DNA of 64,000 nucleotides from Leptogorgia sarmentosa (Eukaryota): NCBI GenBank assembly GCA_964658305.1, contig OZ210885.1, forward strand, positions 10,912,001 to 10,976,000. The letters run 5' to 3'. Positions 29,862-62,850 of the stretch are shown here, piece by piece. The notes below the pieces were generated by a model that searched no databases, was not told the DNA's origin, and saw only the letters and a list, made by a program, of their open reading frames with translations. The position numbers and the translations under genes were made by a program. The first letter of the stretch is position 1, and each line of letters begins with the position of its first letter.

Positions 29862-29864
29862 CCT

Positions 29865-33458: not shown

Positions 33459-33562
33459 CAAAAGTCAATGTAAAATGGGAAAGGTCGATCAGACTGATCA
33501 TGATTGTGACGTATAGTGAATAGAATACTATCTTCATATTACAGGATGGTATCTGTACTTAC

Positions 33563-34912: not shown

Positions 34913-35030
34913 CTTAGGAAAGAATTTGAATTTCGCATTGTTAAAGGTAAAATGCAAAAAAAGCGCATAGCAATGATTCGAGGCCTATTTCCCACCTATC
35001 TTTTTTTTCCTGGTTTTTTCATGTATTTTT

Positions 35031-36545: not shown

Positions 36546-37441
36546 CTAAAAAGTTATATAAAAAGGCCCCTGTTGTACTCTTAATACAATTATCTGGGCA
36601 TAGGCAGTTTCACTGGCATGTATGTAGGAAGATATATAGATTTTATAAAATTAATGCTGATAGCTAATTTCTACTTTTACCATTTGGGAATGATTTGGTT
36701 GTCGATAAATTGCGACGCCGACGCGAAAGCCTATACGATAGATTGCCGTTCGTACGTTACACATAGCACCCCTGCATAGCTCTCGCTGATTGATTCTGAA
36801 TTGCATTGCAATGATTTATTTTAACATGCATTTCCAATTTTGCCCAAATTTCGTTATGATCAAGGCTTCAATTAACGTCGGGAGCATTTTTGTTTGTAGA
36901 GGGCCTGACAAGATAATCTCGAGTTCGTTTTATAGTCAATCAGCCCACAAAAATGGCTGCCCGAATAAGAATCAATTTCTGTATTCACTCAATTAAGCCT
37001 TCGTTATTCTTTATGGAACTAGCTGAAATTCCTTAATTATGTTTGGTCATGGCAACTATGCAAGGGCGTCAATTCGTTCCAAAAAGTGGGGGGGAGGGAC
37101 CATAAGCGTACGGGCTACATTTTTTCAGAGAGGGGGCAGAAAGATATTTGCCCGAATTTGAGGGTAATGAGTGTCACGGGGCGCCACCATGGTTGGCGCC
37201 GAGCGAGAAATTTTTGAACTTTTACAACCTCTGGATTGTCGGAAAAGGCGATTTCTAACTCCACTTTCTTGGTACAGTCGTTCAGGTGAACGACTGGAGG
37301 ATTGTTGACATTATTTGAATTTTTTGGGGGGCAATTGCGCCCCTTGTCCCCCCGCCTCGTACGCCTATGGGGGGACAAAAATCTGTCTGTTGTAAAATAG
37401 TAATTGGAAATTTGAAACATCATGAATGATAAGTGGTCATC

Positions 37442-39030: not shown

Positions 39031-42000
39031 GCAAAGATAAATCTGGTTGCGCAATAGTCTGAAACACGTGGAAAACATGCAATATCGGGTATTCGTATAT
39101 TTTTCGTTTTTATATAAAAACACGGCCGGTTCTCGAAGACTTTTTTACCTATAGCATTGTAAAAAGGTAGAAACAATAATTTTCTACGGCGATTTCATTG
39201 ATACTACTGTAGAACTGAAGATCAGTGTTTGCACAGTTATGATTGGACTAAAGGTTGAAAATATGCATCTAATTAGTATTCCGGGTCACATTTTTCTGCC
39301 ATGTATATTTTAATGGCCTCAAGACAATACATTTTCCTTGTCCCCGAGCCACGGCGCGAAGCGCCGTCCGGGCGTTAGCCCGGGGCGAGGGTAATAATTC
39401 TGCATGGCGGATCCAAAGTTGCTCGATTTGGCCGCCATTTTGGGTCAAGGTGTAAGAGCAAAATGTGTAAGGGTGGTCATCACTGATCTCAAAATTATGG
39501 TGGACTATCATGAAGAGCCAAAGCTTTTTAGAGCTTTTTGGTCCTTTGGAAAGGCGAAAACAAAGACAAGATCTACGCTGTAAGACTTGAAAAGCCTTCT
39601 CAGAAGATATAAAACGCTGAGAAAAGGGAACAAGCGACTACGGATTGAAACACAAGATAAGTTCGTCAATATCTTGTCAGCAGTGAACTTTTGTTTTGCG
39701 TATTTACTATATATACAGTCTACTGTTTGTATGAAAGGTCGCCGTAGCCGCATTCAATCTATTCACGGCTCAATTCCAGAGCATCAGTTTATCATTTTAA
39801 AGGCAAGACTTCGCAAAATATTTTCAAACTTTTCCCGAAAAGAACACGAGCGAACATTGGCTGGAAATTATTTCATGTCAAAGACTGACTTAATTAAACC
39901 GTTTTATGCAAATAAATGTAGTATTTCGCACCAAATTCAAATTTATATTACTCCTAATAACGTACGGTTAACAAATGGATCTCCAAATTAAAAAAAAGCC
40001 AATAAAACAAAGATAAAAGCTGATATTTTGATTGTTTTCAGAAAAATACAGAAATATGAATTTCCGATCGTGTTGCCATGACAACAACCTCAGGCGGCCT
40101 TCGAAGTACTTCATGTTCCAAAAATATAGTTGCATTAATTGGTCAGTAAGGCGAGAGGTTGCTGCATATATGTATTTCTAGTATTACATTGTATATGAAC
40201 ATTGCTTAGATATATAAAGTTTTTTAAGCTGAACAAAAAGAGTGTATTTTGACCTTATTGGGTGCGTAAAACCAGAGATACGGCCAATTATAGTTATGCG
40301 ACATATCACAATATTAATATGATGTTGGAGAGAGGGGATTATAATTATTAAAGAGAAACTTGTAAATGTATATGTAAAACCTCTCAGAACGCGGGAAATA
40401 TGCGTGCGTTAGATTAAACATTTTCGAATCAGCTCACGGTTTACCAACTAACATATAGCCTTAACATGATTAGTTGTCATTAAAGTATGCAATATCATCT
40501 GTAATTTGAGAGAAACACAACCCATGAAGATTTATTATTTACTTGGTACTGTAGAAAAGGGGTCAACTATGATAAAACAAAACTATAATACCTTTTACCA
40601 GCAAGGAAACGATAGTCAATATGACGAAATAGAGATATTTGTTAGGCATCTTCTTTGCTTACCAACAAACGAAAGACGAAATGAAACGTGGCATTAAGTG
40701 GGTGGTAAAAATGGCTTCTTAAGTGCTTAATCCTTTCAATATAATTGGCCTTTTTTGGATACTAATTATAAGCCAGAGGAGAAATGTTATGATCATAATA
40801 TATCAATTAACCTGCGTTTGTATTGAGTTTCATAATGCACTGGTTTCACTTTTGATATCTAGAATATCAGTCTAGCCACAGGCGCTACAGTATGAAAGCA
40901 ACTATAAAGGTAACAGGAACGCGACTGAGCGAAGTGGATCTTTCAGTGAAAATGAGAAAATTTTTAATCAGCATTTATGAATAATTCGCCAAACACTCAA
41001 AGACAAATAAGGGAAAACAAAGAACTCTGTTAAAGTTTGTCCAAACGAAATATGCGTCTCAAGTGTAAGTTAATGACAAATAAAGACAAAGATAAAAAGG
41101 TCAAGTTATTCTTTGCTTTCGAACATTCATATTAAAGCTCATTCATAATAAACTACATATTCGAAATATCTATCTACTCAGGTAAACTTTGTGACATATA
41201 GACATTTAAAGTTTGCCAATTTTCTATTATTGTTGCATTACGCATGCAAAAGTGATAATCAGATCTCCAATAATTTCAACTTCACTTCAGAGAAGATCGC
41301 CCCTCCATCGGAAAAAATTCTAACATCGAATCTCTGTTGCATTCGCATCGCTTCGAATATAACTATTATAACGAAATATGAAAATTGGCGCATTTAAATT
41401 GAAACCTCTTCAAAAACAATGTGGGTGCGGTTGTTCTCGAACGCAATTAATTAAATTGGTCGCTAAAAAATGACAAAGAATTTAGTATGACCAGAATGCA
41501 AATGCGGTATTTAACGTAAACATTGCCATTTAAGACAAAGCGTTCTTTTAAAGTAAACATTGCCATTTAAGACAAAGCGTTCTTTTAAAAACATTTCATT
41601 TGATGTTATCTTATAGCAACTTAGCTTTTCTTAGGTGCCAATGCTGAAGTACAGAGACAGAAACTTCGTGATTGAATTAGCAAAGTGTTCGTAATATAAC
41701 AGCAAATTTGAGTACTCGTTCGTTTGGAGAATATTTTTCATGACTGATACACAATCTATACTTTTGAGCCTGAACTACATAAGAGGATAAACATGGACTC
41801 AGAGCTAAAGTGTTCGATTGTAGATCGCTAATCAGTGGTTCAGATCAGCCCTGAAAATGTTATCACAAAATTTGATATCAGTCAAGATCATCGTAATGTT
41901 CAGGTGCATGGATTAGGACATTCAGCATTATAGTTGGGTTAATTGCTAAGTTCTGGCGCACAAATTGATCCGGAACCAAAACGACAAAAAAAAACATTTG

Positions 42001-42712
42001 CTCTCCTCTCTCTCTCTCTCTCTGGTGCGACTTCCATAATCTCTCACAATGAGTAGCGCAAGGTTTTCTTGCCATAAAATACGCTATTTCTCCCTTGTCA
42101 TTACACGATCATTTCACTTTCCACGTACGCTTCGACAATCTTATAATAATGATAATAATAATTGCAATTTTAAATTGCCCAATGTGGACGTAGATGTTCT
42201 CGAACAGTCATCGATTATAATTGTCACTAAAATGACAAAGAATTTACTGTGAAGAGATGCAAATACTGTTTCTAATGTAAACATTGCCCTTTAAAACCAA
42301 GAGTTCTTTCAAAATATTTCATTTTATTTCGCCATCGTCTGTTAAAACTGTTTTATGATGGTCTGCTCTTTGTGTCTGTATAACTTTGGACAGGTACTCA
42401 GCAGTTTCACGTCCATTAAAAAACTATAAATGCAGGAAAAAAATGTTAAAGTGGAACTTGCCAAATAAAGCTTGTTGATGCAAATGAGGCTAGACAAAAC
42501 GAATTTAGTATGCTGTTCGTCAGAAGTGAATTTAAACTTGTAGTGAATTTATAACCCGAGATTAACAACAGAAGAGTGATTTCTATAAAGAAAACTTTCT
42601 TGGAACCGGCACCCTATACAAGTCAGAGTCGATTCTAATTCGCACACATAATCAATGTCTGATGCATGGTAAATACATGCTGCTCCTTGCTCCCACGCAA
42701 CTCGTGACATAT

Positions 42713-43245
42713 ATATATATAGGATATTACACGGTTGCGAGAAGATATGGATTTTATGTTCGAGTGGCAAGAACAATATCTCACGAGTGAGCGCAGCGAA
42801 CGAGTGAGATATTGTTCTTGCAACGAGAACATAAAATCCATATCTTCGAGCGAACCGTGTAATGTTCTGTTTATTATATGGACTTATTCAGAGTGACACA
42901 AATACACAACAACTACTCTTTTAATGAAAACATGCAGTCTAAAACACGACAATTAATGGCTTTAAAATTAGCCTTTACTAAATATAGATTATAAAATACC
43001 GCATTATTGTAGTTTATTGTAGTATTGTAGCTTTATTGTTCTTCGCAAAACGTACTAATATCGTCTTGGCTTAAATTCACAAACCTTGAAGTAGAAGCCA
43101 TTTGTAAACAGCGAAAAAGGCGGGAAGGTTATGTCACCCCTAAGCGTGACATACGGAAAATACGCGCACCGTATCCCGGATGTAGTGGCGTATGAGTTCT
43201 ACGAGTGTTTTAGTTCCCAATAAAATACCGCTGTCCATATAATAA
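42713..43245. mobile_element. Hairpin-ended (Crypton-like) element inserted in tandem unit 1
   Basis: Absent from units 2 and 3; palindrome 42722-42867; TTATTATATGGAC/GTCCATATAATAA inverted pair. Confidence 0.85.
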
Positions 43246-46200
43246 GACTAAGTTATATTATTCTTCGACCCAGCACCATTCAAGTGAAACCCACAAACGC
43301 AAAAGCTGGAGCGTTCTCAATATGTGACGACATTTATTTACGTCGTAGAAGTTCAATACAGAAGCTTTTAACATCTTTGCGAATTCAACATTCGGTGAGT
43401 ACTATAAAAATTTTTGAAACTATTTCCAGTTTGTACAATAACGTTAGGAATTGCAATATTACAAATTTCCTTTCAAAGCACAATATCCATCTGATGACGT
43501 TGCAACACAATGACAAACAAACATGTCTTTACGCTTCTACCATTCGTGTAATATCGTCTCAGGTTATGTGAGGGTGTTCTATGTCGCTCTTCACTTTTAA
43601 TTATCTGTGATCTCGTGAGCCTTGTATTGCACATAAACTCCACAAATCACCACTTAGTTTATCTAAGATATTTGTCATGCAAGAGCACTTGTTTGTAAAT
43701 TGAACTTAATTTATTCAGACAAGATACTGATAAAACTAGACAAGATTTGGATCTTTTAATAAAAGCTGAGGTCATGAATCATTATTTATTAAATGCTTTA
43801 AAGCTTTTCATTACGATCTGTACTGATTCTTGGGTGGTTATATCATCGTGAACATACATATGACTGGTGCGTGTTCAATCGTTGACATGTCATGCATACA
43901 GCGCTACTTGGCACGATTTGTTGAAAATCCTAAATTGAATTGAGCATTGCCAAACAAAGCAGCCTCCATCCTCACTTCGGGCTTATTCAATACAGACTTG
44001 AGCATGCAATAACCAGGGACCAAACAAAGAAATTATTATATTAAAGAGAACCTTGTAAATGTATATGTAAAACCTCTCAGAACGCGGGAAATATGCGTGC
44101 GTTAGATTAAACATTTTCAGCTCGCGGTTTACCAACTAACATATAAATATAGCCTAAACATGATTAGTTGTCCTTAAAGTCTGCAATATTATCTGTAATT
44201 TGAGAGAAACACAACCCATGAAGATTTATTATTTACCTGGTAGCGTAGAAAAGGGGGTCAACTACGATAAAACAAAACTATAATACCTTTTAGAGCAAGG
44301 AAACGATAGTCAATGTGACGAAATAAAGATATTTGTTAGGCATCTTCTTTGCTTACCAACAAACGAAAGACGAAATGAAACGTGGCATTAAGTGGGTGGT
44401 GAAAATATCTTCTGAAGTGCTTAATTCTTTCAATATAATTGGGCTTTTTCGGATACAATCACTAATATGAGCCAGAGGAGAAATGTTATGATCATAATAT
44501 ATCAATTAACCTGCGTTTGTACTATGACTGCATGGCACATCATTCTACAGATGGCTATAACAATTACTATTTTGCAGTAGTTTAATTGCTAAATATTTTT
44601 TGTGCATAATGAAGGCCAACCTTTACGTTCGTCTTACAACTCAAGTTGTTCGATTGTCCAAACGAATTATGCGTATCAAGTATAAGTTAATAACAAATAA
44701 AGACAAAGATAAAAAGGTCAAGTTATTTTTTGCTTTCGAACATTCATATTAAAACTCATTCATAATAAACTAGATATTCGAAATATCTATCTACTCAGGT
44801 AAACTTCGTGACATAAAGACATTTAAAGTTTGCGAATTTTCTATTATTGTTGGATTACGCATGCAAAAGTGATCATCAGATCTCCAATAATTTCAACCTC
44901 ACTTCAGAGAAGATCGCCCCTCCATCGGAAAAAATTCTAACATCGAATCTCTGTTGCATTCGCATCGCTTGGAATATAACTATTATAACGAAATATGAAA
45001 ATTGGCGCATTTAAATTGAAACCTCTTCAAAAACAATGTGGGTGCGGTTGTTCTCGAACGCAATTAATTAAATTGGTCGCTAAAAAATGACAAAGAATTT
45101 AGTATGACCAGAATGCAAATGCGGTATTCAACGTAAACATTGCCATTTAAGACAAAGCGTTCTTTTAAAAACATTTCATTTGATGTTATCTTATAGCAAC
45201 TCAGCTTTTCTTATGTGCCAATGCTGAAGTACAGAGACAGAAACTTTGTGATTGAATTAGCAAAGTGTTCGTAATATAACAGCAAATTTGAGTACTCGTT
45301 CGTTTGGAGAATATTTTTCATGACTGATACACATTCTATACTTTTGAGCCTGAACTACATAAGAGGATAAACATGGACTCAGAGCTAAAGTGTTCGACTG
45401 TAGATCGCTAATCAGTGGTTCAGATCAGCCCTGAAAATGTTATCACAAAATTTGATATCAGTCAAGATCATCGTAATGTTCAGGTGCATGGATTAGGACT
45501 TTCATCATCATTAGTTGGGTTAATTGCTAAGTTCTGACGCACAAATTGATCCGGAACCAAAACGACAAAAAACAACATTTGCTCTCCTCTCTCTCTCTCT
45601 CTCTCTGGTGTGACTTCCATAATCTCTCACAATGAGTAGCGCAAGGTTCTCTTGCCATAAAATACGCTATTTCTCCCTTGTCATTATACGATCATTTCAC
45701 TTTCCACGTACGCTTCGAAAATCTTATAATAATGATAATAATAATTGCAATTTTAAATGGCCCAATGTGGACGTAGATGTTCTCGAACAGTCATCGATTA
45801 TATTTGTCACTAAAAATGACAAAGAATTTACTGTGAAGAGAATGCAAATACTGTTTCTAATGTAAACATTGCCCTTTAAAACAAAGAGTTCTTTCAAAAT
45901 ATTTCATTTTATTTCGCCATCGTCTGTTAAAACTGTTTTATGATGCTCTGCTCTTTGTATCTGTATAACTTTGGACAGGTACTCAGCAGTTTCACGTCCA
46001 TTAAAAAACTATAAATGCAGGAAAAAAATGTTAAAATGGAACTTAAGCCAAATAAAGCTTGTTGATGCAAATGAGGCTAGACAAAACGAATTTAGTATGC
46101 TGTTCGTCAGAAGTGAATTTAAACTTGTAGTGAATTTATAACCCGAGATTAACAACAGAGTGATTTCTATAAAGAAAACTTTTTTGGAACCGGCACCCTA

Positions 46201-49200
46201 TACAAGTCAGAGTCGATTCTAATTCGCACACATAATCAATGTCTGATGCATGGTAAATACATGCTGCTCCTTGCTCCCACGCAACTCGTGAAATATGACT
46301 AAGTTATATTATTCTTCGACCCAGCACCATTCAAGTGAAACCCACAAACGCAAAAGCTGGAGCGTTCTCAATATGCGACGACATTTATTTACGTCGTAGA
46401 AGTTTAATACAGAAGCTTTTATCATCTTTGCGAATTCAACATTCGGTGAGTACTATAAAAATTTTTCAAACTATTTCCAGCTTGCACAATAACGTTAGGA
46501 AATGCAATATTACAAAATTCCTTTCAAAGCACAATATCTATCTGATGACGTTGCAACACAATGACAAACAAACATGCCTTTACGCTTCTACCATTCGTGT
46601 AATATCGTTTCAGGTTATGTGAGGGTGTTCTATGTCGCTCTTACTTTAATTATCTGTGATCTCGTGAGCATTGTATTGCACATAAACTCCTCATATCACC
46701 ACTTAGTTTATCTAAGATATTTGTCATGCAAGAGCGCTTGTTTGTAAATTAAACTTAATTTATTCAGACAAGATACTGATGAAACTAGACAAGATTTGGA
46801 TCTTTTAATAAAAGCTGAGATCATGAATCAGTATTTAATAAATGCTTTAAAGCTTTTCATTGCGATCTGTACTGATTCTTGGGTGGTTAATCATCGTGAA
46901 CATACATATGACTGGTGCGTATTCAATCGCTGACATGTCATGCATACAGCGCTACTTAATTGGGACGATTTGTTGAAAATCCTAAAATGAATTGAGCATT
47001 GCCAAATAAAGCAGCCTCCATCCTCTCTTCGGGCTTATTCAATACAGACTTTAGCATGCAATAACCAGGGACGAAACAAAGAAATTATTATATTAAAGAG
47101 AACCTTGTAAATGTATATGTAAAACCTCTCAGAACGCAGGAAATATGCGTGCGTTAGATTAAACATTTTCAGCTCGCGGTTTACCAACTAAAAAAACATA
47201 TAAATATAGCCTTAACATGATTAGTTGTCCTTAAAGTCTGCATATTATCTGCAATTTAAGAGAAACGCAACCCATGAAGATTTATTATTTACCTGGTAGC
47301 GTAGAAAAGGGGTCAACTATGATAAAACAAAACTATAATACCTTTTAGAGCAAGGAAACGATAGTCAATGTGACGAAATAAAGATATTTGTTAGGCATCT
47401 TCTTTGCTTACCAACAAACGAAAGACGAAATGAAACGTGGCATTAAGTGGGTGGTAAAAATAGCTTCTGAAGTGCTTAATTCTCTCAATATAATTGGCCT
47501 TTTTTGGATACAATCACTAATATGAGCCAGAGGAGAAATGTTATGATCATAATATATCAATTAACCTGCGTTTGTACTCTGACTGCATGGCACATCATTC
47601 TACAGATGGCTATAACAATTACTATTTTGCAGTAGATTAATTGCTAAATAATTTTTTGTGTATAATGCAGGCCAGCCTTTACGTTTGTCTTACGACTCAA
47701 GTTGTTCGATTGTCCAAACGAATTATATGCGTATCAAGTGTAAGTTAATAATAAATAAAGACAAAGATAAAAAGGTCAAGTTATTTTTTGCCGTCGAACA
47801 TTCATATTAAAACTCATTCATAATAAACTAGATATTCGAAATATCTATCTACTCAGGTAAACTTCGTGACATAAAGACATTTAAAGTTTGCGAATTTTCC
47901 ATTATTGTTGCATTACGGATGCAAAAGTGATAATCAGATCTCCAATAATTTCAACCTCACTTTAGAGAAGATCGCCCCTCCATCGGAAAAAATGCTAACA
48001 TCGAATCTCTGTTGCATTCGCATCGCTTCGAATATAACTATTATAACGAAATATGAAAATTGGCGCATTTAAATTGAAACCTCTTCAAAAACAATGTGGG
48101 TGCGGTTGTTCTCGAACGTAATTAATTAAATTGGTCGCTAAAAAATGACAAAGAATTTAGTATGACCAGAATGCAAATGCGGTATTTAACGTAAACATTG
48201 CCATTTAAGACAAAGCGTTCTTTTAAAAACATTTCATTTGATGTTATCTTATAGCAACTTAGCTTTTCTTAGGTGTCAATGCTGAAGTACAGAGACAGAA
48301 ACTTTGTGATTGAATTAGCAAAGTGTTCGTAATATAACAGCAAATTTGAGTACTCGTTCGTTTGGAGAATACTTTTCATGACTGATGCACAATCTATACT
48401 TTTGAGCCTGAACTACATAAGAGAATAAACATGGACTCAGAGCTAAAGTGTTCGACTGTAGATCGCTAATCGGTGGTTCAGATCGGCCCTGAAAATGTTA
48501 TCACAAAATTTGATATCAGTCAAGATCATCGTAATGTTCAGGTGCATGGATTAGGACATTCAGCATTATAGTTGGGTTAATTGCTAAGTTCTGACGCACA
48601 AATTGATCCGGAACCAAAACGACAAAAAAACATTTGCTCTCCTCTGACTCTCTCTCTCTCTCTCTGGTGTGACTTCCATAATCTCTCACAATGAGTAGCG
48701 CAAGGTTTTTTTGCCATGAAATACGCTATTCCTCCCTTGTCATTATACGATCATTTCACTTTCCACGTACGCTTCGAAAATCTTATAATAATGATAATAA
48801 TAATTGCAATTTTAAATTGCCCAATGTGGACGTAGATGTTCTCGAACAGTCATCGATTATATTTGTCACTAAAAATGACAAAGAATTTACTGTGAAGAGA
48901 ATGCAAATACTGTTTCTAATGTAAACATTGCCCTTTAAAACAAAGAGTTCTTTCAAAATATTTCATTTTATTTCGCCATCGTCTGTTAAAACTGTTTTAT
49001 GATGGTCTGCTCTTTGTGTCTGTATCCAACCTTTGTTGTATAACTTTGGACAGGTACTCAGCAGTTTCACGTCCATTGAAAAACTATAAATGCAGGAAAA
49101 AATTGTTAAAGTGGAACTTGCCAAATAAAGCTTGTTGATGCAAAAGAGGCTAGACAAAATGAATTTAGTAGGCTGTTCGTCAGAAGTGAATTTAAACTTA

Positions 49201-49388
49201 TAGTGAATTTATAACCCGAGATTAACAACAAAAGAGTGATTTCTATAAAGAAAACTTTTTTGGAACCGGCACCCAATACAAGTCTGAGTCGATTCTAATT
49301 CGCACTCATATTCAATGTCTGATGCATGGTAAATACATGCTGCTCCTTGCTCCCACGCAATTCGTGACATATGACTAAGTTATATTAT

Positions 49389-49830
49389 TATACATTTAAT
49401 ATTTATTCTCGTTCCTGATTGGTCAGAAAGCACCGGCTAATTCTCAGTATTCGGCATTTCGATGACGTCATCAGCGTCCAATAATTATTTTTTTGGATCG
49501 AACTTGCATCCAAAAAAAAAATTATTGGACTCTCTCGTGCCCAAGCCCTAGCGCTTTCAAAAGCTTGAAGCTAAAAGCGCGCGAAAAAAACAAACAAACA
49601 ATGGCCAGCAGCAGATTTTGCTTCGCTGAATGAAAGTGAACTCTCCAAATTACCGTGTCTTTTAAATGTATAATAAAACAATTATTGGATTCGGCTTTCG
49701 CATGATATCAAGAATTATTCAGACCTCGGTCAATGTTATCCGCCTCAGCTTCGCTTCGGCAGATAACATTGACCTCGGTCTGAATAATTCTTGATATCAT
49801 GCTCAGCCTCATCCAATAATTGTTTATTAT
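49389..49830. mobile_element. Hairpin-ended (Crypton-like) element inserted in tandem unit 3
   Basis: Absent from units 1 and 2; TATTAT direct repeat at both ends; palindrome ~49676-49824. Confidence 0.85.
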
Positions 49831-52800
49831 TCTTCGACCCAGCACCATTCAAGTTGAAACCCACAAACACAATTGCTGGAACGTTCTCGATATGTGACGA
49901 CATGTATTTTAGTCGTAAAAGTTTAATACAGAAGCTTTTGTCCTTTTAACATCTTTGCGAATTTAACATTTGGTGAGTACTATAAAAAGTTTTGAAACTA
50001 TTTCCAGTTTGCACAACAACGTAACAAAATCCCATATAGCAAATTCCCTTTCAAAGCACAATATCCATCTGATGACGTCGCAACACAATGACAAACAAAC
50101 ATGCCTTTACGCTTCTACCATTAGTGTAATATCGTTTCAGGTTATGTGAGGGTGTTCTATGTCGCTCTTACTTTTAATTATCTGTGATCTCGTGAGCCTT
50201 GTATTGCACATAAACTGCTCATATCACCACTTAGTTTATCTAAGATATTTGTCATGCAAGAGCGCTTGTACATGTTTGTAAATTAAACTTGATTTATTCA
50301 GACAAGATACTGATAAAACTAGACAAGATTTGGATCTTTTAATAAAAGCTGGGGTCATAAATCATTATTTATTAAATGCTTTAAAGCTTTTCATTACTAT
50401 CTGTACTGATTCTTGGGTGGTTATACCATCGTGAACATACATGTGACTGATGCGTGTTCAATCGCTGACATGTCATGCATACAGCGCTACTTGGCACGAT
50501 TTGTTGAAAATCCTAAATTGAATTGAGCATTGCCAAACAAAGCAGGCTCCATCCTCACTTCGGGCTTATTCAATACAGACTTGAGCATGCAATAACCAGG
50601 GACCAAACAACAGGTGGACCTTTATTGCTCTCAGGTTTTCAGCGATATAACTGCAACTTAGGAACGCTCAGTCTGTAGCGCTGTTAGAAAATTTACTGTT
50701 CTTGACTAATTAGGTTGTGACTTGTGACGAAGTCTTCAAAGCAAACTAAGGAAAGCAAACTTCAATACTAGCAGTGTTTGCCTCACGCAAGTTTGTTTAC
50801 AAGTTTCATAAAAAAACTATAGTATATGATTGGCAACATTTCAGTATCGGTAAAAGTAGATAGATTGCGTCTAACATAAAACGAAGACTCAGATTAAATT
50901 GACTGACAGCATGCAAGTAAGCGAACTATGGGGTTGTTTAAAGGAATATAAGATATATGTGCTTTAGTTTTAAAATTGTCACGTGTATATCTACCCAACT
51001 CTTTCCGACATGACTTATGTTTGAAAATCACGGTAACATCTACTACATTGTGATGGGTATTTAACTGCCAAAATCTTTGCGAAATTTAATATACGAACTG
51101 TCTTTAATTTTTCATTCATATGATAATTATATTTCCTAAGAAGAGGGAAAATAAAACCGAATGATTTTAAATTCATGACGGATTAAAAATAAGTTGAGTT
51201 GCATTGTGCCCTGGTGTAAAGTTACGAACTCATCTCAGGCGAAAATCATTTTGATATTTTCCTTCATAGGGTAAACTTGTATTGGTCGTTCAGACGTCTT
51301 ATTATTGTGACAGAAATCATTTCAATGTACTGTTTTGTTGCATGAAACCCAACATGCATTACTTTGCACTTTGCAACAATATTCCCGAAGCTTAAACAGC
51401 AACTTGCTTCAGCTTCAGGTAGTTTATACACAGAATGTCTTGTGGTGAGAAGAATTCATCAAATTTATTGTCACTGAATCATTTTACCGAGTAGTGTGTA
51501 AGGAAATATTCAATATGCGGCGCGCCAGTGCGGGAAGCGGATCACAACAGCAAACTCCAGAAAGGGTTTTGCAATTGCTCACTACCTAAACGATGCAATT
51601 AATAAGTTTCAATATTTGGAGCGAACGCCTTTTGTCGGAGTTCATCGTTTAATTTAGGTATAGTCTGACGAATAATAGCATCAAGAGCACCGGAAAATCC
51701 ACTCACCAAGGATTGTATTTTAGCAAAAGTTCAACTAAGAGCCTTTGTCCCAAAAGTCGAATCTGCGTATTGTTTTAGTATTGATCAACTGTCACCATAG
51801 AAAGCAAGTAATTCATTGCTTCATTGGAATCAGAGTTGAAACATATATAAAATATTCCGCTACATGCAAACGCATGTTGACATGCAATGTCTCGACCTTA
51901 ACGATCTTGAATGTTTCACAACGACCGTAGTGCAGTTTCATATTGTATTTTAGAAGATTTACCCAAATTTGCATAAACTTTAGCCTGAAATGAGCGCCGA
52001 AAAAAAACAACTGTGCTATCAGTTATATTTATAACCTTTATTTAACCTTTTATTTAAAATAACTTTATCATTGCGGCTCTCTGCTCCCACGTAAAATGTC
52101 ACATATGACTGTCTTGCTGAGTTGGAAACAGAATTGCTCGAACGTTCGCGATATATGACGGCGTTGAGTATTGTGACAGAAAATGAATACAGAATCGCTT
52201 TCTCTTTCAAAAGTCATTTTAACACTCGGTGACTCTACGAAAATGTTTCGAAATTATTTCAAGTTTGCAGAGTAACTTTATAAAATGTCTCATTGCAAAT
52301 TCCTTTCAAAGTACGATATCATGCGTCTGCAACAAAATGCCAAATAAACGTGCACTTGGAGTATGTCTCTCTTACTTTATCTGTGATTTCGTGAACACAT
52401 AAACACCTCACACACCACTTAGTTTATTTAAGCAATTCGTCATGCAAAAGCGTTTGTTTGTATGTTGTAGTGTTGTAGACTTCAATTTTCAATTAAAAAG
52501 CTTTTCATGACTATCTGCAGTGTATTCTTGGGGTTATTATATCATGGAGACGTATGACTCCGGCGAATGTTCAGTCATTGGCATGTCATGCATTAGAAAT
52601 GTACGTCTAATTTTTACTGAAAATCTTAAATTGAACTGAGCTTATTCAGACTTGAACATGCAATGACCAGAGAGCCAAACAACACGCAGACGGACCTTAA
52701 TTGCATTGTAATTTGACAAATTACAGTCTGTATCCCAAATTTCCTGCTCTTAATTTTGATTAGATTTAGACGAGGCCTTTAAATTCATACGAAAGCAAGC

Positions 52801-53623: not shown

Positions 53624-54209
53624 ATGATATCAGTGGAAGAACAACATTGGGTTTTAGTTGGCATTGCCTTTACCAAAGTTCTTGCACCTGCATTGAGGAA
53701 CGTTGTCGCCACTGAACTTGGGAAGTGGTATCATTCTTTATGCCAACCACCTGATGAAATTCACATGCAAGATTTTGCAGCATACAAAAAGAAGAAATTA
53801 CCCCCTTCCACCCATAACCTACAATATCAAAACATTAACAATAACATTATCCACAAGCCTACTAAATCAGCTTATGATTATGCTGTTAAAGATCCTGTCT
53901 CGTTGGCGAAACTATTCGTCACGGACTTTATGGCACATTTCACTGGATTTGATGAAACCATGGATATGTCAGCACTTTTGACTATTATCGGCAAGGCAGC
54001 TCCTTTTGTATCTTCTGGCGCTGCAGCTGAAGCAAACAAAGTTCGGTCGGACATCAGAAACCCATGGGCTCATTGTAACATCTCTGAATGGACGCTACAT
54101 ATGTTCAATGACTCGTTTCAAGCAATGGAATCTTTGGTCAAAATATTAAATTTACCAGCAGTTGACGAAAAAATAATTTGTGATGAACTAGATTTCTGGA
54201 ATAAAACAG
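53624..54209 (+). CDS. Gene B first coding exon: DZIP3-like HEPN domain
   Basis: ATG at 53624; EEQHWVLVGIAFTKVLAPALR...RSDIRNPWAH; ACA G|GTACTG donor. Confidence 0.8.
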
Positions 54210-54270
54210 GTACTGTATTATTAGCATTATTGCCGGAATTTCATCATGCCTTTAAATATGTTTTGCGCAG

Positions 54271-54287
54271 ATCATTTTTTATCTCCG
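54271..54287 (+). CDS. Gene B 17-nt linker microexon (DHFLSP)
   Basis: gcgcag|ATCATTTTTTATCTCCG|gtaaga; converts the phase-1 HEPN donor to the phase-0 acceptor of the next exon. Confidence 0.65.
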
Positions 54288-57200
54288 GTAAGAAAACTCC
54301 CATGTGTTGAAAGAATTTCTCTTATTATTCATTTATTATCATTATTATTATTATCCAATTTTATTCATATATTACCATATATACAATTCAATGCGATTCT
54401 CAATACGATCAATCGTTGAAATTATATGGGGTCGAACAGGTAAAAAAAATTAAATTCTCCAATAGTGTAGCTATACTTTGAAACTTTACATAGAAATCTA
54501 GTGTTGAATTGGTGACTGTGATTTATTTTTAGACCTTCATATAAGTGCAGAAGTTAAATGCCTTTAATACTGTATACAACATGATATACAGTATAGTACA
54601 ACTAATATATGCTGACATATGAATAAAATCAAAATTTTGACATGAATTAGACTTCGTAAATCGTACTAATTCCAGTTGGACATTTGTGTTCAAAACTTCA
54701 ATCATTCAAAAGTCGGGAATGTTTAACGCAATTTTGGCAATTTTTTCATTTTAGTATTAGGCACGCAAAATTGATAGACTTTTCTCGTTAAGGATATAAA
54801 TGCATGGGTAATACTAAAATATACAAAATTTTAAAACTTTACAGGGTCATATTTTTCGCATTTTAAAACATTTCTCAACCAGACTTTACAGTTTTACTAA
54901 CTTTGTGATACTCTTTAACGCTGTTGCTCTGGATTGTACTATTTCGAAATTTTTGTATGTCTATCATGCAAAAAATCTACTTTACTCAAAACGTCCAACC
55001 TATTTGCATTGTTTAGGTAGTGGGTAGGACATGTGCTGCTTGCTGATGTTGTTATCCCTTATCTACTACACTGGCCGCATATTGAAGTTTGCTAATAGCG
55101 ACAGCAGACCATGCTTATCAAATAGTTTGTATGGACAGCAGGGCATGCTTTTTCATGTATCCTTCGTGCTACGCGCATTAGCAGCGATATATTTATAGTG
55201 TTTGTGATACTGAAGATAAATTTTCTTTATTATTTCCAGACATTCTTGTTGATGGTCGTGACGCAAAACTAATTGCAGAAAGTGTAGCTGAACTTTGCCG
55301 TTGTATCAAAAACTACGATTTGGACGCCACAAAGGTTTGAGGAACTTTTGATATTTCATTTAACAGTCGTTGAATAAGTAGGAAGACGCAGTTCAAATTA
55401 ATATGACATGTTTCAAATGCGAGCGAGTGCAAATTTTCAGCGTGGGAACGCAATATGTGCTTTTTTTCGATAATGCTGTTTTTATGAGTTTTGCTTTACC
55501 CGTTAAACGTTACAAGTCAAACATGTGCATACTTTTTTGCGGAGACGTTTGCAATAGAACACTTAGAACGAAGCGTGTACCGATGAATAAAACACACTAC
55601 ATATCAATTACTGATAAATACTATATTATAAATATCCCATTAAGCAAAACAACTGAGCCATTCTCATAGGCAAGAGATAAAACTAAATTTTGATAGATCA
55701 CAATTATTTTTCCTTGCAAAATTGCTATTCCAACGTTGAACTACAAATTTCTGGAAAGTTTAGAAACTAGGAAACTTGCATGTCAAATTTCAATAGACCT
55801 TATGTCTTATGTCACAAGTACAGGTGGGAAATTTGTCGCTGACCAAAAAATCGCGGGCACAAGCGAAGCACATTCCAAAACATGGCAGAAAGTAAACAAA
55901 CAACTGTTTTAGATGACGATTTTTGTTTTTTTATTCAAATGATGTCTAACTTAGTGCTTAATCTTTTAAAATCGATCATGAATTCCTTGTTTTGCGATGA
56001 TTTTTTTTTGCAATCGAGTGCGTGAATATGGCGTCATTAACACAGGGGCAAATGAGTGGCAAATACCGCAAATGTCGAGATGTGGCTTGCTTAAACCGTA
56101 ATCAACGAGGAAAACGTGATATGAGAATGAAAATGAAAGTTGAATGAAAGTTGACTTTTTTCTTTCTCAAATTTCCCATAATTTGTTTGTTAGTGTAACT
56201 TGTGCGATTTATACTCGAAGTACTAGCTCGCGAAATTTGGCGAATTTTGAAAATTTGTGAATTCAAAATAGCTTGACTGTGAACTGTATTTTTTTAAACA
56301 GAGCCCGTGGCCTCAATTTCAAATATAGCTAAATGAAAACAAACACTTCTTTGGCGTTTAGTGATACCAAACCTATCAACAGGAAAATAGGGCCTCATGA
56401 TGCTTTAGTTAAGTGTTTGAGACCCACTTGATTCACACGTGTTGTGGTCAAATTCTGGCCAAGAATCAAAGGCCCAAAAGTGAATTTACATCATCAAATC
56501 TGCTTTGAGGAAGGTCTAGTTTAAAAATATAGCTTTTAATTTAGATTTCCTGAGCATAATTCGGTTAGAAATGAAATTTTTTTGTATTTGATGAGATTCA
56601 AAATTATTTGTATATTCAAGCCAGGCTTCAGTGTAATTATAATGATAACCGGAAATGAACTGAAGATATTTCAAAAACTGGCCGTGGCCTCACGATAAAA
56701 CATTCCAAAAATATTCTCCACTTCATGTATTTTATTGTGATTGTACTTTAATTGTAAGCATCAAAATAGGGCCTTGAACAGGCCGGGGGCTCATATTCAG
56801 CCTTCAGTAGAAGTGAAATCCCACGCTTCATCACAAGAGTTATTTTGCTCCGCCATGATTTGTGCTCTGTCGCTGATATTTAAACCTTTACGACATAAGT
56901 ATTGTCATCCTCGTTACGAATTACGATGCGAACATTTCACACAAAATTCTAATTATTGCAGATTAACTTGTGACTGTAAACAGTAGCTAGAAGTATGCCA
57001 TTCAGAATCGACAGAAGACGAATTTTAGCTCGTATTCGACTTTACATCTGTGTCGACCAAACATTGGAATATTTCGTCCTCACAGTGAGGTAAAAATTAT
57101 TCGATGGCAATTCGAAAATGTTGAGAAAAAAGGGCCAATTTATAAGAGAGGAAAAATAGGTACGCATGTGGGTAGCCCGTAAAAGATCGGCGAAGCAATT

Positions 57201-57822
57201 TTCCCTTTCTCAAAAATCCTAACCATTAAAGTCAGGAAAATATTGATAAAGCTCAGACGGTTAAGCACACGGGCGTGCGTCGCAGTTCAAACAAACCAAG
57301 TCCACAGAGTTTCCGTCTTCTCTCTTCAGCTAGCCACAATGCGTAGTTTCTGTCCCGAGGATTCTTGACTTTCTCAGTAATTGCCTTCAAGTTCTCCTAC
57401 AGTAATCCTATTCAATTTGGGAATTAACTGCCTAAGCGACTGGCTTCGGTTTCTCGCCCTTGCTGGGCGAGAGTTGCATATAACTCCATCGTTTATCGAC
57501 TAAGAGTTTTATTTTCAGTTTGGCAAAGCACTCCAAGTATAGAACGACTGTCTTTAAACTTCAGGACATCAGACCGCAGTTGATTCTTTTCAGTTTTGGA
57601 GCTTAGTTCACCCCACGCTAGTTACTCTTCGTCACCTTTTTTTCATTCAAGAACTAACAATTTTACTTTACTCATCTCGCCTAAGATTCATTGTTTTCAG
57701 TCACCTCGATACACGCTTTCAATTCCAACTAATTCTTCTCGAATCCTTGTGTGGCCCTGCCCTCTTTACTTGTCAGGTCGTCTTCGGCTCATATATATTG
57801 TCTCATCTTAATCTCTAATCTA

Positions 57823-58425
57823 ATATATATGAAAAAATTTCTCGATTCTGATTGGCTGAAAACAGTGCAATTTTAAGGAAATACAGTGCCAAAAAAGGAA
57901 ATTCATGTTAATGTCCTATGATTGGCTGAGATTACAAAGCTATCCAATCAGATTAAGTCATTTCTGGCGAACAATAACAAAATATGAAATTATTCGAGGA
58001 TGAAAAAATGGCTGCCTTTTTGAGTAGATTTTTTTGGCAACAGACAAATGATAGAGGGGCTTAAAAATAGTTCGAAAAATGAAAATACCAGGAAAGATAT
58101 CTATTCTTGTGGTTGATTGTGCGGATAAAATGGTGCATTGAAAAGGAAATACAGCGCGAGTACAAAATATTCCGCAGCAGGTGTTAGATTATATATTTTG
58201 CTCGATTTTTTTTATGCTGAACGAAAACTGTGAATTAAAAAAGAAACGACATGAATATGAAGCAGACAGCTTGAAAGTGATATTAACAGCAGTCGATGTT
58301 GACAACTTTCTTATAATACGAGACAGAGATTTCTCTTCGTTCAAGCAAGTGCTCGGTGGACAAGCATCACTCGTGCATGTTTTTCCAAATTGCACTCGAA
58401 ACCATACAATTGCTCATACTAATAA
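57823..58425 (+). mobile_element. Crypton-like element relic with decayed coding fragment
   Basis: CTGATTGG start; ATG at 58008; fragments LKNSSKNENTRK and ELKKKRHEYEADSLKVILTAVD resemble DUF3504-associated tyrosine-recombinase N-termini; right half of a terminal hairpin present. Confidence 0.55.
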
Positions 58426-58544
58426 CGTTAGATTATAACTATTATTACATCACACACCTTAAGCCGCTTTGTGAAGTTGAGAGTGATTTCAAATTTGTTT
58501 CAGCCCGTAAATTGAATATTACTAAATCAATTTTATCTATTCAG

Positions 58545-58740
58545 ATAAATCCAGTGATGGAGAAACTCGATAACATACAATCCACAATGCTTCACAAAAT
58601 TAAAGAGGTTGAAAGTTCTGCAGCTGAGAAACTTGAACATCATTCAATGGAGCTTAAACGTCTGGCGGAGAAAACAGATGAAATCGAATGTCGTCAGAAA
58701 AAGCCGAGGACGGAGCATTCAGATTTTGCAGAGAAAAAAG
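58545..58740 (+). CDS. Gene B exon: short coiled coil
   Basis: ttcag|ATA AAT CCA GTG ATG GAG AAA CTC GAT AAC...AAA G|GTAG; homologous to gene A 5786-6713 but with a single KLEHHSMEL unit. Confidence 0.8.
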
Positions 58741-59199
58741 GTAGTGTTTCAATTAACTTGGAAGATGGGAAACTATTTATGCAGAATATATTATGCAGGA
58801 AAATTTGCAGAGTATCAGGCAGCCATTCAATTTTCAAAATTTGTCCCCCACGAACCTTCCCGGTCTTCAACGTTCTTTTTCTAAGAATTTCTTGTAGGAA
58901 AATATCTCGTTAGAGTAAACGGCAACAGGAATGCAATATGTCTTCTAACACTTCCCAGATTTAGTGGGAATCCGAAAGCATTGGCAGTGCAGTACGCGCT
59001 GTCGCACTCATCATCACTAAAAATGAATTTTAATGTTGGGCGGGTTAACTGCGTAGGTCACAACCAAATAAAAAACGCTCGTGAAAAGTTGACGCAGCTC
59101 AATTGCGACAAGAATGCTTAAATGTTGCTGATAGTAGTTAAATGCTTCTTCTTTTGATTTGTGTCCTAAAATGCTTCATTAATAGGAGATTCAGTATAG

Positions 59200-59480
59200 C
59201 CGATGTTAAAAGCCAAGTTGTCAAGTTGCGAACTGTGGTAGAAAATGTAAAATCTTCTGAAAATTAGCTAAATTTGTCTTTAAAGGAAAGATTGACTAGC
59301 TTATTCGAAAATTTCAAGAAGGGACCAGACAATGGTTCTTTGACGACTTTGAAAAATGGCTTCGCGATACGAAATCGAGAGTTATGATCCAAAAAAAAAG
59401 GAAAATTATGTGACTTGTATGAAGAGACTGGCCAGCTTGCTGGCTGCCACTTCTGTGACTTTAGAGGCTCTGATTGCCGA
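59200..59480 (+). pseudogene. Decayed NACHT-type (NPHP3_N/AAA_16-like) NTPase exon relic in a gene B intron
   Basis: Reads LAKFVFKGKID*LIRKFQEGTRQWFFDDFEKWLRDTKSRVMI, then KLCDLYEETGQLAGCHFCDF; the P-loop segment expected between them is missing. Confidence 0.7.
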
Positions 59481-60163
59481 TATGTCACTATTCGTTTGCA
59501 CTACTTTCAAAAAATCCATGCTGTAAATGATGTTTATAGCTTTATTCTATAGCATGATTTGAAAGCTTCAACTGAAATGGACGCTGCGCGATATATTCAA
59601 TGACACGTCGGCTGTCCAGAAGCCGAATCATACCCTAGAATGTCTAATTCTTATTTGTATAGGTGCATATTGGCATGGTTTCGAATGCAATTTCGATATA
59701 GTATATGCACACGAGTGACCTCGATGATTAGGAATGGTAGTTTGATATTACATATCTTTATATCACCACTGCACCCAGTGGACAGCACTTCAAAATCATA
59801 CCGTACTCCAAGTTCTCTCACCCTGCAGTACAGGTGGTGAGGAAAGACTGTACCAATTAGCACCTTCTGCGCGCACGCATAAACGACCAAATAGGAACGG
59901 CCACAAACTTCTCATCAATAATTGTAATGCACACTACAAATTGCTTTTCTTGGGAAAGTTTAAATAAAGTTTAGACTCACTTCAATAACAATTCACTGCA
60001 AACTGTAGCAAGAGATTTTAATGCCAGAGCGACGTAAAATATTTAACGAAATTAATGTTCAAAGTTGAAATTGTGCAAATATGCATTCTGGTATACACAA
60101 TTATTTGAAGCATGCAGCAGAGTGATTTCAAAATTATCATCTGTATTTTATTCGATATTCTAG

Positions 60164-60495
60164 TTCCGTATGGATTACGCAATCTACCTGCTCACATGGT
60201 GGAAAGGCCATCAGAAGTAACCGAGATATTGGAGTTACTCAAGCAGGGAAATAAAGTGGGTGTTGTTGGACGTCATGGTGGCGACGTTGGTATCCGTGGA
60301 ATGGGAGGCCTCGGTAAGACGGTGTTAGCCCAAGCTGTTGCCTGGGAAGTCTCAAAATCTCGTCAAGTTGTCTGGCTTGACATTGGTCAAACACCTGATC
60401 GCTTGAAACTGATTAACACCCTCGTCAGAGTCCTTGGTGGACATGTGTCGTTCAGTGATATTGTTGCGGCGCAATCTTGGTTAAGAAAATACACG
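60164..60495 (+). CDS. Gene B exon: NB-ARC first half (P-loop)
   Basis: VGIRGMGGLGKT Walker A; ctag acceptor and ACG|GTATGT donor. Confidence 0.92.
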
Positions 60496-61344
60496 GTATG
60501 TATGCTGTGCTATATTTGATGTTTGTGATAGGGCTATTTTCAAGGTATAGGGACGATTTTTAATGGGATGTAGCTCGAGTAGGCAAGTTGCAGTAATACG
60601 GCAAAATAATATCCAGTACAGCGTTGGTAAACGTAAATTAAAGCGACGTTAAAGATAGAAGTCTGATGTTAGATGGACGTTATAGCTAGAATAGTGGCAA
60701 TTCTTCCAAGTCTTTTCTTTCACACGACCACTTGCCCAGGCGGTAAGCTTTATTACTTGTCTTTAATTTTTAAAATAAATTTAACATTTTAACTCGGCTT
60801 CGCCTCGTTCAGTATTGAAAATTTCTCGTGCGTTGTACAGCCAGCTCGTGTAAGTATTTGTAAACAAAGCACAATTCTTAACTTGTACATTCTTGTGAAA
60901 CGAAAACAATATATACTTGCATACGACTGATGTGGCTTGACTGATGGTCGAAATATTTGCTTCATATTGCCTCCGGGTCTATAAATGATAAATATTACCT
61001 CTACTTTCTCAGTTCTTTAAAAAACTTCATTCATATCATGCATTGGCAGTTGGGACTCTTTTACACTGCAATTTTTGCAGCTATTTCTAGTGCGAGTTTT
61101 ATTATTTCCGCTTTGATAGAGGTGAAAGACTAAACCAGTTGCGGAAGTCAGAATTAATAAAATCAGAACACTCGTCATAAATCCACCTACGAACATGTGC
61201 CTCATATATCAGAAAGGCCAGAAAATGCCACTAAAAAATTGCAAGCGAGCCTTTGAAGGCCTTGGCCAGTAAGAGTTGTAAATTTTCCGACCTTTGAATG
61301 CAGTTAACATACGGTTTCTTAGCTAGTTTTCAACTCATTTTTAG

Positions 61345-61984
61345 ATGGATAAAGATTGTTTGGTTGTTGTTGATGATGTTTGGAAGGTGGACGACGCTGC
61401 TGTATTCAATTGCTTATCTGGCAAATGCCAATTACTAATAACAACTAGAGATGCTACTGTTCTCTGCGGTTCGGGAATTACCAAGTACGAACTTGTTATT
61501 ATGCCACAAGATAAATCCCGAGGGCTGTTGTATCAGAGCGCTGGGATACGTCCAGAAGAACAGTTAACGCCAAACTTACGGCGAATTATTGCAGACCTGT
61601 TAGAGCAGTGTCGAGGTTTACCCCTGGCTCTGTCACTGGTGGGTTCAAATTTAACGGGCACTCGTGCGGAACAAGACTGGGAGGATGTTTTAGATGATCT
61701 TAAAAATGCTGACCTGGAGAGAATTCGTTCATTATTTCCCAAAGTCGATTATCCTTATGATAACCTCTTAGCAGTCATTGATGTGAGCTATCAACGCCTA
61801 GACGAAAGTGTACGCGAGATGTTTCTTTATTTGGCTATATTTCCAGAGGATACAGATATACCGTCAGATGTACTCGAGCTGCTGTGGTGTTCGATACAGA
61901 ACCAGAATGGAAAAACTTCGCGCAAACCTCAGAAACACAAAGATATACTTGCTGTGCTCGAGAGAAAGTCGCTGATCTTAAAAG
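61345..61984 (+). CDS. Gene B exon: NB-ARC second half
   Basis: CLVVVDDVW, LLITTRD, RGLPLAL, LAIFPED; ttttag acceptor and AAA G|GTAC donor. Confidence 0.92.
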
Positions 61985-62427
61985 GTACAGTTTTATCTTT
62001 TAACGGTTTTGATCTGCACATCCTCCTAAAAATTTTTATCTTCAGTGCCAAGTTCACTTTGCAGTATTGTCATTAGTAACGAAAATTTACAACAGTCAGT
62101 GAACCAGTAATACAGGTTGCAAAGTGGATCAACTGGATTTTTTGATGTTTTGTAATAATAAGGCGAATCATGTAAATTAAAAAATATTGTTTGCTTTTTA
62201 GGAATTAGGAGTTTTACCAAGACTACCTTAAGTCTATGTGTCTTTTTGCAGATATTGCATTATTCTTGGCTCGTTATAGCCAATAATTATTCTTATTGTG
62301 ACTAAGCCATTTCGTATTTACGAAAACCTGATAGCACAACTCCTTCTATACTACTCAACGGCGATTTTGAGATTTCAAAAATTGTCCGCCTCTAGTACAG
62401 ATTTCCTAACACTTCGATCAATTTCAG

Positions 62428-62850
62428 GGCCTGAACTCCACGGAAAGAAAAGCTATCGTGTCCATGACTTGCTTTTGGATTTTGCCCAGACAAAACTTCA
62501 AGACATGGGTACACTAAATGATGTTCAGGATAAGTTCGTAAAGACACTTTGTGGCCTGTGCGTGGATGGTGAATGGAATGATAATTCAACTACCTGCCAA
62601 AAAGACTATTATTTCAAGTACCTACCCTATCACATTTATTCTTCGGGACGACATGGTGAACTACTCCAGTTGCTGTTTGATGTACACTGGCTCAAACAAA
62701 AAGCGAAACACGTCAGCGTATTCTCTGTAATATCAGATTTTCGTTTTGTGGACACAGAATCGGAGGAAATCCAACTTCTCAAATCCTCGTTAATGTTCTC
62801 TGCCGATGTCATCAACGAAAACCCAGATTCAATCTGTCCTCAACTCCTAG
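62428..62850 (+). CDS. Gene B exon: MHD-type motif and APAF1-like helical domain (gene continues beyond the window)
   Basis: YRVHDLLLDF, YYFKYLPYH, LLFDVHWLKQK, ICPQLLG; tttcag acceptor and CTA G|GTAA donor. Confidence 0.9.

Follow-up and report, generated by a model that had tools for sequence, protein, structure and literature searches.

A probable HEPN head on an APAF1-type NB-ARC chassis in the octocoral Leptogorgia sarmentosa

APAF1, the protein that builds the animal apoptosome, is a nucleotide-controlled switch that alternates between ADP and ATP and assembles into a ring; caspase-9 is recruited by the CARD at its N-terminus. The APAF1 paralogues of Nematostella and amphioxus carry DED, DD or TIR heads, and swapping of heads has been described (PMC2246300). 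Enzymes also occur as heads of signal transduction ATPases with numerous domains (STANDs): human SAMD9 is an animal STAND with intrinsic tRNase activity (PMC10246899), and bacterial Avs and bNACHT STANDs bear enzyme heads, including cyanobacterial Apaf-1 orthologues with a protease (PMC13581612, 10.1101/2022.07.19.500537). In cnidarians, CXorf38-type HEPN domains are fused to NACHT nucleoside triphosphatases (NTPases) and to DEATH domains, and RNA degradation has been proposed as their function (PMC3710099). Corals have many genes that combine DZIP3-type HEPN with NACHT or NB-ARC domains, among them the rows HEPN-NACHT-WD40 and HEPN-NB-ARC-TPR (PMC10236652), and expansions of HEPN-NACHT genes number 83 in Dendronephthya and show an intact Rx4-6H motif in pearl oyster (PMC8260672, PMC9646362). 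The subject of this report is gene B of Leptogorgia sarmentosa, at positions 53624-62850 (+ strand) of a 64,000-nucleotide stretch of contig OZ210885.1, termed the window. Gene B is a new combination of known parts, a probable HEPN head on an APAF1-type chassis, and HEPN-STAND fusions in cnidarians have already been published from sequence. Our preferred reading, to which we assign a probability of about 55%, is that it encodes a ligand-gated HEPN ribonuclease (RNase) receptor, activated by oligomerization.

Gene B resembles the CXorf38 branch of HEPN proteins (PMC3710099) in its matches, through relatives, to DUF4559 and HEPN_Swt1, in an intact Rx4H motif with asparagine after the arginine, and in an insert within the HEPN domain. 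It differs in that its NTPase is an APAF1-type NB-ARC domain with helical domain 2 (HD2) and, in relatives, WD40 repeats; moreover, its insert has no conserved zinc-ribbon cysteines and it has no double-stranded RNA-binding domain. The terms 'APAF1' and 'AP-ATPase' have 0 occurrences in the main text of that paper, as available. With the DZIP3-HEPN receptors of corals and bivalves, gene B shares the tripartite HEPN-STAND-repeat layout (its repeats being predicted from relatives), tandem expansion, the Rx4-6H motif and a proposed RNase effector, whereas its HEPN domain belongs to another family. HEPN appears in 0 of 7 'APAF' rows of a five-coral domain table (PMC10236652; 12 of 17 supplement files, and 25 of 200 WD40 places); the table has no octocoral and is blind to a head that Pfam does not see, and therefore this absence of HEPN-APAF forms is weak. 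APAF1 and its paralogues (PMC2246300) have the same NB-ARC domain, winged helix with xHD and HD2 and, like the relatives of gene B, WD40 repeats, but the heads described there are all protein-interaction domains, whereas that of gene B is a probable enzyme and not a CARD. With bacterial Avs and bNACHT systems, gene B has in common that an enzyme replaces an adaptor on a STAND switch, and HEPN is among the bNACHT effectors; unlike them, it contains introns and both of its modules nest among animal genes. Our literature searches, without most subscription papers, turned up neither a HEPN joined to an APAF1-type chassis nor a HEPN-STAND of any animal that had been tested for function.

The window is eukaryotic, with a GC content of 33-40%. 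Gene B has six coding exons, with GT-AG at all borders and phases of 1, 0, 1, 0, 1 and 1, which give 757 codons without a stop; the splice sites were read by eye and then checked by script. Exon 1 (53624..54209) encodes the Swt1/CXorf38-like HEPN domain (residues 1-195), including RNPWAH at residues 145-150 (54056..54073). Exon 2 (55240..55334) is a helical linker, with a homologous stretch in a relative, P0001, and exon 3 (58545..58740) is a likely coiled-coil linker. The likely coiled coil of exons 2-3 was recognized by inspection and by comparison with the exon-3 counterpart in gene A, an inverted paralogue in the same window, where heptad repeats match many coiled-coil families. Exon 4 (60164..60495; NB-ARC, E 2.4e-06) holds the N-terminal part of the NB-ARC domain with Walker A, GMGGLGKT (residues 338-345; 60298-60321). 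Exon 5 (61345..61984; NB-ARC, E 5.2e-18) holds Walker B, LVVVDDVW (residues 409-416; 61360-61383), the sensor-1 TTR within LITTRD (residues 434-439), GLPL (residues 494-497; 61615-61626) and the start of the winged helix. Exon 6 (62428..62850; APAF1_C, E 2.8e-10) holds VHD, of MHD type (residues 628-630; 62460-62468), and APAF1 HD2. The original prediction of one spliced frame with RNPWAH, Walker A, Walker B, GLPL and VHD is thus correct.

Splicing was followed in six sequencing runs, X1-X6, none of which is recorded as RNA; X4-X6 are three samples from one study. At 90% likeness, contigs of X4 and X5 lack all five gene B introns, removed at exact GT..AG sites, and X1 and X2 skip 0 of 5 and have even intron coverage. 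At 96% likeness, over the stretch up to 60600, contigs of X4, X5 and X6 lack introns 1-3; those of X3 show no such skipping. Because the junctions are exact and depth is concentrated on exons, X4-X6 are taken as RNA. The junction from exon 1 to 55240, both junctions flanking exon 2 and those of exon 3 are present in X4-X6; junctions also support exon 4, and exons 5 and 6 are joined from 61984 to 62428. The expectation that transcripts splice exon 1 towards the NB-ARC exons is therefore borne out in X4, X5 and X6. Two 5' loose ends of the contigs were not found in the window, which leaves the 5' untranslated exon without a position there, and both carry, as read by eye, an in-frame stop ahead of the ATG at 53624. 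Gene B is a real gene and apparently expressed; a pseudogene is ruled out by the open frame, the exact splicing and ratios of nonsynonymous to synonymous change (dN/dS) below 0.5.

Exons 4-6 are, to judge from their matches, an APAF1-type NB-ARC/winged-helix/HD2 module with intact motifs. Exon 6 scores 40.7 bits against APAF1_C (cut-off 22.8), and all six of its PDB sequence matches at E up to 0.1 are APAF1; the best PDB sequence match of exon 5 is APAF1 1z6t (E 3e-16), ahead of plant nucleotide-binding leucine-rich repeat receptors. The chassis first proposed on the basis of motifs is upheld by these NB-ARC, APAF1_C and PDB matches. The accompanying comparison, in which the head takes the position of a CARD, survives as to APAF1 type and fails as to kin, which are anthozoan paralogues with DED or death heads and not CARD proteins. 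No CARD was matched in exons 1-3 by Pfam, and a canonical CARD-APAF1 orthologue is ruled out, as a HEPN-like head stands in its place. Among 583 chassis relatives, a HEPN head is found in 2 of the best 120, P0001 and P0139. P0001 has the HEPN head, the same chassis and WD40 (1205 amino acids (aa) on a 4084-nt contig), and P0139 has head, chassis and full WD40, by sequence and precomputed domains (1709 aa on a 5604-nt contig); because these proteins fill short contigs, leaving introns absent, both contigs appear transcript-like. Of the relatives with a named source, those of Dendronephthya and Xenia are nearest, and the other closest chassis relatives (53-64% identity, among the matches listed) bear death-fold heads. 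A DED head is confirmed by Pfam in P0138, while by eye those of P0136, P0137, P0140 and P0143 are DED-like and those of P0141-P0142 death-like. In several of these DED- or death-headed proteins, the head stops just ahead of the sequence that opens gene B exon 4. The next chassis relatives are prokaryotic NB-ARC-WD40 proteins, at about 30-34% identity.

The head was assigned through its relatives, of which 138 are near the length of exon 1 and 15 are longer; a profile search gathered a HEPN subfamily of 554 clusters at 50% identity. HEPN_Swt1 is matched by 80 of the 115 members of profile A1 at E up to 0.1, and by 20 of the 73 members of profile A3 at E up to 0.01 (best 9.7e-07). DUF4559, which we take to be the CXorf38 family, is matched by 39 of the 115 A1 members, and by 26 of the 73 A3 members at E up to 0.01 (best 3.9e-09). 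Two relatives, P0365 and P0320, exceed the DUF4559 cut-off over a segment that includes their RNDW[GA]H; their alignments to exon 1 have E values of 7e-26 and 2e-37, respectively. CXorf38 has been classed under Swt1-like HEPN domains (PMC3710099). The original prediction had cited DZIP3-like HEPN fusions for comparison, and here it needs correction: PF18738 (DZIP3/hRUL138-like HEPN) is not among the 25 families listed, of 27, for the 115 A1 members, and its sole match among the 73 A3 members falls outside the exon-1-type domain, farther downstream in P0257 (residues 248-308). A DZIP3-type head is ruled out, since PF18738 does not match the exon-1-type domain; the head is Swt1/CXorf38-like instead.

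The predicted RNase active-site motif is RNPWAH (R145-N146-x-W-A-H150), which lies at the end of a helix. R145, N146 and H150 are each present in 114 of 115 A1 rows, and D114, upstream of the motif, is invariant in A1. Of 105 diverse segments (median identity to exon 1, 37%), 97 retain R and H, and 92 retain RN and H; this count was taken from 157 aligned segments of 150 listed representatives, with the 52 that do not span the motif omitted. The R, N, W and H of RNxWAH are among the best-conserved columns. An AlphaFold2 (AF2) model of exon 1, with a predicted local distance difference test (pLDDT) score of 93.7, has helices at 4-39, 115-124, 133-150, 158-174 and 179-194; H150 closes helix 133-150, helix 3 of the all-helical bundle, and is followed by a loop and then helix 158-174. 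The same position, where a helix ends into a loop and an acidic residue lies upstream, is given for the Rx4-6H motif of HEPN domains (PMC3710099). After helix 1 comes a Cys-poor insert of about 50 residues, and the basic insert (residues 40-90) is strongly conserved. In a wide fold search with VIA, the yeast Swt1 C-terminal domain (4pqz) was the best covered of the leading matches (Z 7.9, root-mean-square deviation 3.3, 118 of 136 aligned); 7ae2 (Z 7.0), 3o10 (Z 6.2) and 4rgp (Z 6.0) also matched, and HepT, sacsin HEPN and Csm6 were listed below 4pqz. The domain of exon 1 is, on the strength of its relatives, very probably a Swt1/CXorf38-like HEPN. The earlier claim of an N-terminal HEPN with an intact catalytic-type motif is therefore very probably right, through the relatives' DUF4559 and HEPN_Swt1 matches, the conservation of the motif and its helix position. 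Pfam, AlphaFold and Foldseek had been named as ways of checking it, and they divide: the AF2 helices fit HEPN, and neither Pfam nor Foldseek gives a direct match.

A number of observations weigh against the reading of gene B as an RNase receptor. Exon 1 itself has no Pfam match at E up to 1, and PDB sequence searches with exon 1, A1 and A3 all failed to match a solved HEPN. Foldseek returned nothing from the PDB or from viral structures at E up to 0.001, and the Z of 7.9 for 4pqz is level with that of acyl-CoA dehydrogenase bundles (Z 8.3, 94 aligned), in the range usual for helical bundles. In a second VIA run, all Z values stayed below 8 (MOB1, bromodomains, Csm6 at 6.4 and AbiF at 5.3), and residues 88-195 folded without an alignment gave a pLDDT of 45.9 and were not used; the fold evidence is compatible with HEPN, not decisive. 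The structural positions L97, N72, N74 and L119 are conserved as well as R and H, and therefore conservation alone cannot single out catalysis. The solved Swt1 HEPN domains are listed as inactive (PMC3710099), and a literature search of titles and abstract starts found no RNase test of CXorf38. At the level of the gene, no single read or contig reaches from exon 1 as far as the NB-ARC part, the contigs being short, and the exon 1-2 contig is common to genes A and B; the join between head and NB-ARC therefore rests on the chain of junctions together with P0001 and P0139. By tblastn, no further gene B exon follows 62850 up to 64000, and no WD40 exon of gene B was seen.

Alternatively, the head might have the HEPN fold but bind RNA or dock a protein, recruiting a partner on oligomerization, as would the DED in whose place it stands, without cutting RNA. 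The inactive listing of its closest solved fold, the Swt1 C-terminal HEPN (PMC3710099), would agree with such a role, as would the strongly conserved basic insert and the apparent replacement of a death-fold adaptor by HEPN. Inactive HEPNs usually lose their motif, however (PMC3710099), whereas R and H are kept here in 97/105 segments, and the same source lists CXorf38 proteins among those predicted to be active. We regard a non-catalytic head as improbable, but as the likeliest of the alternatives.

Under the RNase reading, the gene B protein would rest in an auto-inhibited, ADP-bound state, closed by the winged-helix domain, HD2 and WD40. A ligand on the WD40 tail, which is predicted from relatives, would trigger nucleotide exchange and ring formation, and the HEPN heads would then pair through the flexible helical linker to form a composite active site. 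The active site of HEPN enzymes is a composite of two HEPN domains, and a dimer is needed. The predicted outcome would be RNA cleavage, leading to translation shut-off or death of the infected cell independently of caspases. SAMD9 has a Schlafen-like nuclease domain. SAMD9 and SAMD9L (PMC10246899) are the best functional analogue, having an N-terminal RNase effector and being auto-inhibited and activated on infection; they differ in nuclease domain, STAND class and sensor. The word 'dimer' is absent from the available text of PMC3710099.

The origin of the fusion can be approached from its two modules. A quick chassis tree (41 rows, midpoint root, with support from the Shimodaira-Hasegawa-like approximate likelihood ratio test only, and with canonical CARD-APAF1 not in the tree) places four HEPN forms inside an 11-row clade (100) with Dendronephthya and Xenia proteins, whose earlier branches have DED-like or death-like heads. 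Within this clade, P0139 (99) and P0001 (92) are the partners of gene B; gene A falls next to the DED protein P0138 without resolution, and therefore the HEPN forms may have arisen more than once. A quick HEPN tree of 39 rows puts the four corresponding heads (genes A and B, P0001 and P0139) in a clade of 23 rows (99), where all other full-length members are of the HEPN-STAND-TPR-beta-helix-MYND type, the common form in octocorals and Mytilus; the P0139 head does not join the other three. Together, the trees suggest an exon swap in octocorals, in which the HEPN-linker cassette of a HEPN-STAND-TPR family replaced the DED-type head of an anthozoan APAF1-like paralogue; the direction of the swap is taken from tree nesting only, and we infer that the swap point was the phase-1 intron ahead of exon 4. 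Whole-gene transfer from bacteria is rejected, as both modules nest among animal sequences; given this nesting and the presence of introns, the gene was likely assembled in an animal.

Gene A has the six-exon layout of gene B on the - strand (10752-10142, 9198-9104, 6713-5786, 3549-3212, 2307-1665 and 262-1), with 958 codons without a stop and RNPWAH intact; it has no ATG at the place matching the start of gene B. Contig ends from X4 and X6 read into its exon 3. Repeats of 7 and 14 residues have lengthened this coiled-coil exon (6713-5786) to about 310 residues; they also occur, in a shorter run, in P0001, and therefore the distance from HEPN to NB-ARC differs by more than 200 residues between the paralogues. 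DNA identity between genes A and B is 85-88% over exons 1 and 2 and much of the intron between them (53626-55623 vs 10719-8813), against 68-73% in the NB-ARC exons. The synonymous difference (pS) is 0.19 in exon 1 vs 0.46-0.59 in exons 4-6, which is consistent with recent gene conversion or module exchange in exons 1-2. The dN/dS values are 0.40 for exon 1 (Fisher p 0.003) and 0.26-0.34 for exons 4-6, showing from codon comparison that both genes are under purifying selection. In run X6, a loose end at 54209 links exon 1-like sequence (96% likeness or more) with another exon 2, a sign that the species has a third HEPN-headed paralogue elsewhere.

Another alternative is that HEPN is an integrated decoy or sensor, bound by pathogen inhibitors that target the many HEPN-STAND proteins, with the signal passing to caspases via hetero-oligomers with DED paralogues. 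Octocoral DED-headed paralogues with a 62-64% identical chassis could supply the partners, and the faster exchange of the HEPN module than divergence of the chassis (pS 0.19 vs 0.46-0.59) would suit a decoy. Yet HEPN occupies the N-terminal effector slot, P0139 keeps a full WD40 sensor, and the four APAF1-type copies show no relaxation of the catalytic motif. A decoy is accordingly an unlikely explanation.

WD40 repeats, for which a search downstream had been advised, follow in the relatives P0001 and P0139; gene B itself shows none up to 64000. If gene B stopped soon after HD2, it would be CED-4-like, without WD40, and its control would lie with an inhibitor or with expression and not with a ligand. 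The missing downstream exon would fit this, as would a minor splice that gives a 296-residue, head-only product; but the phase-1 donor that closes exon 6 lies at the very point from which P0001 and P0139 run on into WD40, and introns of 3 kb occur within gene B. A WD40-less form is very unlikely, and we infer that the WD40 exons of gene B lie beyond the window. The last alternative, that the head is an unrelated helical bundle with RxxxxH by chance, would explain the lack of direct Pfam, PDB-sequence or Foldseek matches and VIA scores level with unrelated bundles, but it is most improbable given the transitive matches above the DUF4559 cut-off that cover the motif, the HEPN_Swt1 matches in 80/115 close relatives at E up to 0.1 and the fitting position of the motif.

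The 37 long representatives of the HEPN subfamily carry nSTAND3 (16), ankyrin (14), NB-ARC (8), NACHT (7) and NPHP3_N (3), and WD40 is not among the 25 families listed for them, of 59. One HEPN family thus appears ahead of several STAND types, as expected of a mobile effector. Intron 3 of gene B contains a decayed, NPHP3_N-type NACHT exon piece (59288..59380, + strand, within 59186-59500), which is frameshifted and lacks Walker A. It is the best match in the window to a profile of two sequences, P0346 and P0350 (13.2 bits vs a maximum of 3.5 in 150 shuffles), and it resembles the NACHT that follows this HEPN in Xenia P0346; it is not found in gene A. Two pieces of the relic, taken alone, have no Pfam match, and the flanking pieces are putative. 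The minor splice, from 58740 to 59286 (X5 only, depth 5 vs 296), keeps the frame of the relic and reaches a stop after 296 residues, yielding a HEPN-linker product without NB-ARC. The inverted intact paralogue, the recently exchanged HEPN module and the decayed NACHT exon point to shuffling that is continuing.

A bolder proposal, which we hold tentatively and at slightly less than even odds, is that octocorals possess a caspase-free 'nuclease-some', a WD40-gated APAF1-type wheel that pairs CXorf38-type HEPNs and whose HEPN-linker cassette is still swapped between STAND chassis. If true, it would have no precedent in our literature searches as an enzymatic head on an APAF1-type chassis in an animal, and would offer a switchable system for showing that CXorf38-type HEPN domains, those of humans included, are RNases. 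By one exon swap, an animal would have made an apoptosome scaffold that recruits caspases act directly as an effector, in parallel with bacterial Avs/bNACHT and SAMD9, which are built from other parts. Corals and bivalves have dozens to hundreds of HEPN-STAND genes, for which an RNase output has been proposed in print. Gene B makes this proposal directly testable, since its chassis is the best understood of the STANDs and auto-activating and P-loop mutations are easily placed in it. Pfam mostly misses the HEPN subfamily (554 clusters), and so surveys of coral receptors likely count such genes as headless.

Other arrangements occur within the subfamily. Its HEPN stands beside a DZIP3-HEPN in P0257 and as a degenerate tandem pair in P0259; the two HEPN-like stretches of P0259 were considered as a natural HEPN dyad, which was dropped since both motifs are degenerate. 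In the long proteins P0285 and P0305, the domain lies near the C-terminus, and the Roc/COR matches in 2 of the 37 long members may be these two.

Between genes A and B, exons on the - strand (24843-36609) encode SUEL lectin, SRCR, F5/8 type C and two FN3 domains, and are likely to form a receptor-type gene. Long open reading frame pieces on the + strand (19235-20677) look by eye like a broken retrotransposon gag and have no Pfam match at E up to 0.001. Tandem repeats of ~3 kb with 95% identity, at 41037-51447 and 12302-13909 and with related inverted copies near gene A, are likely transposon-derived, and the window also contains several short palindromic elements.

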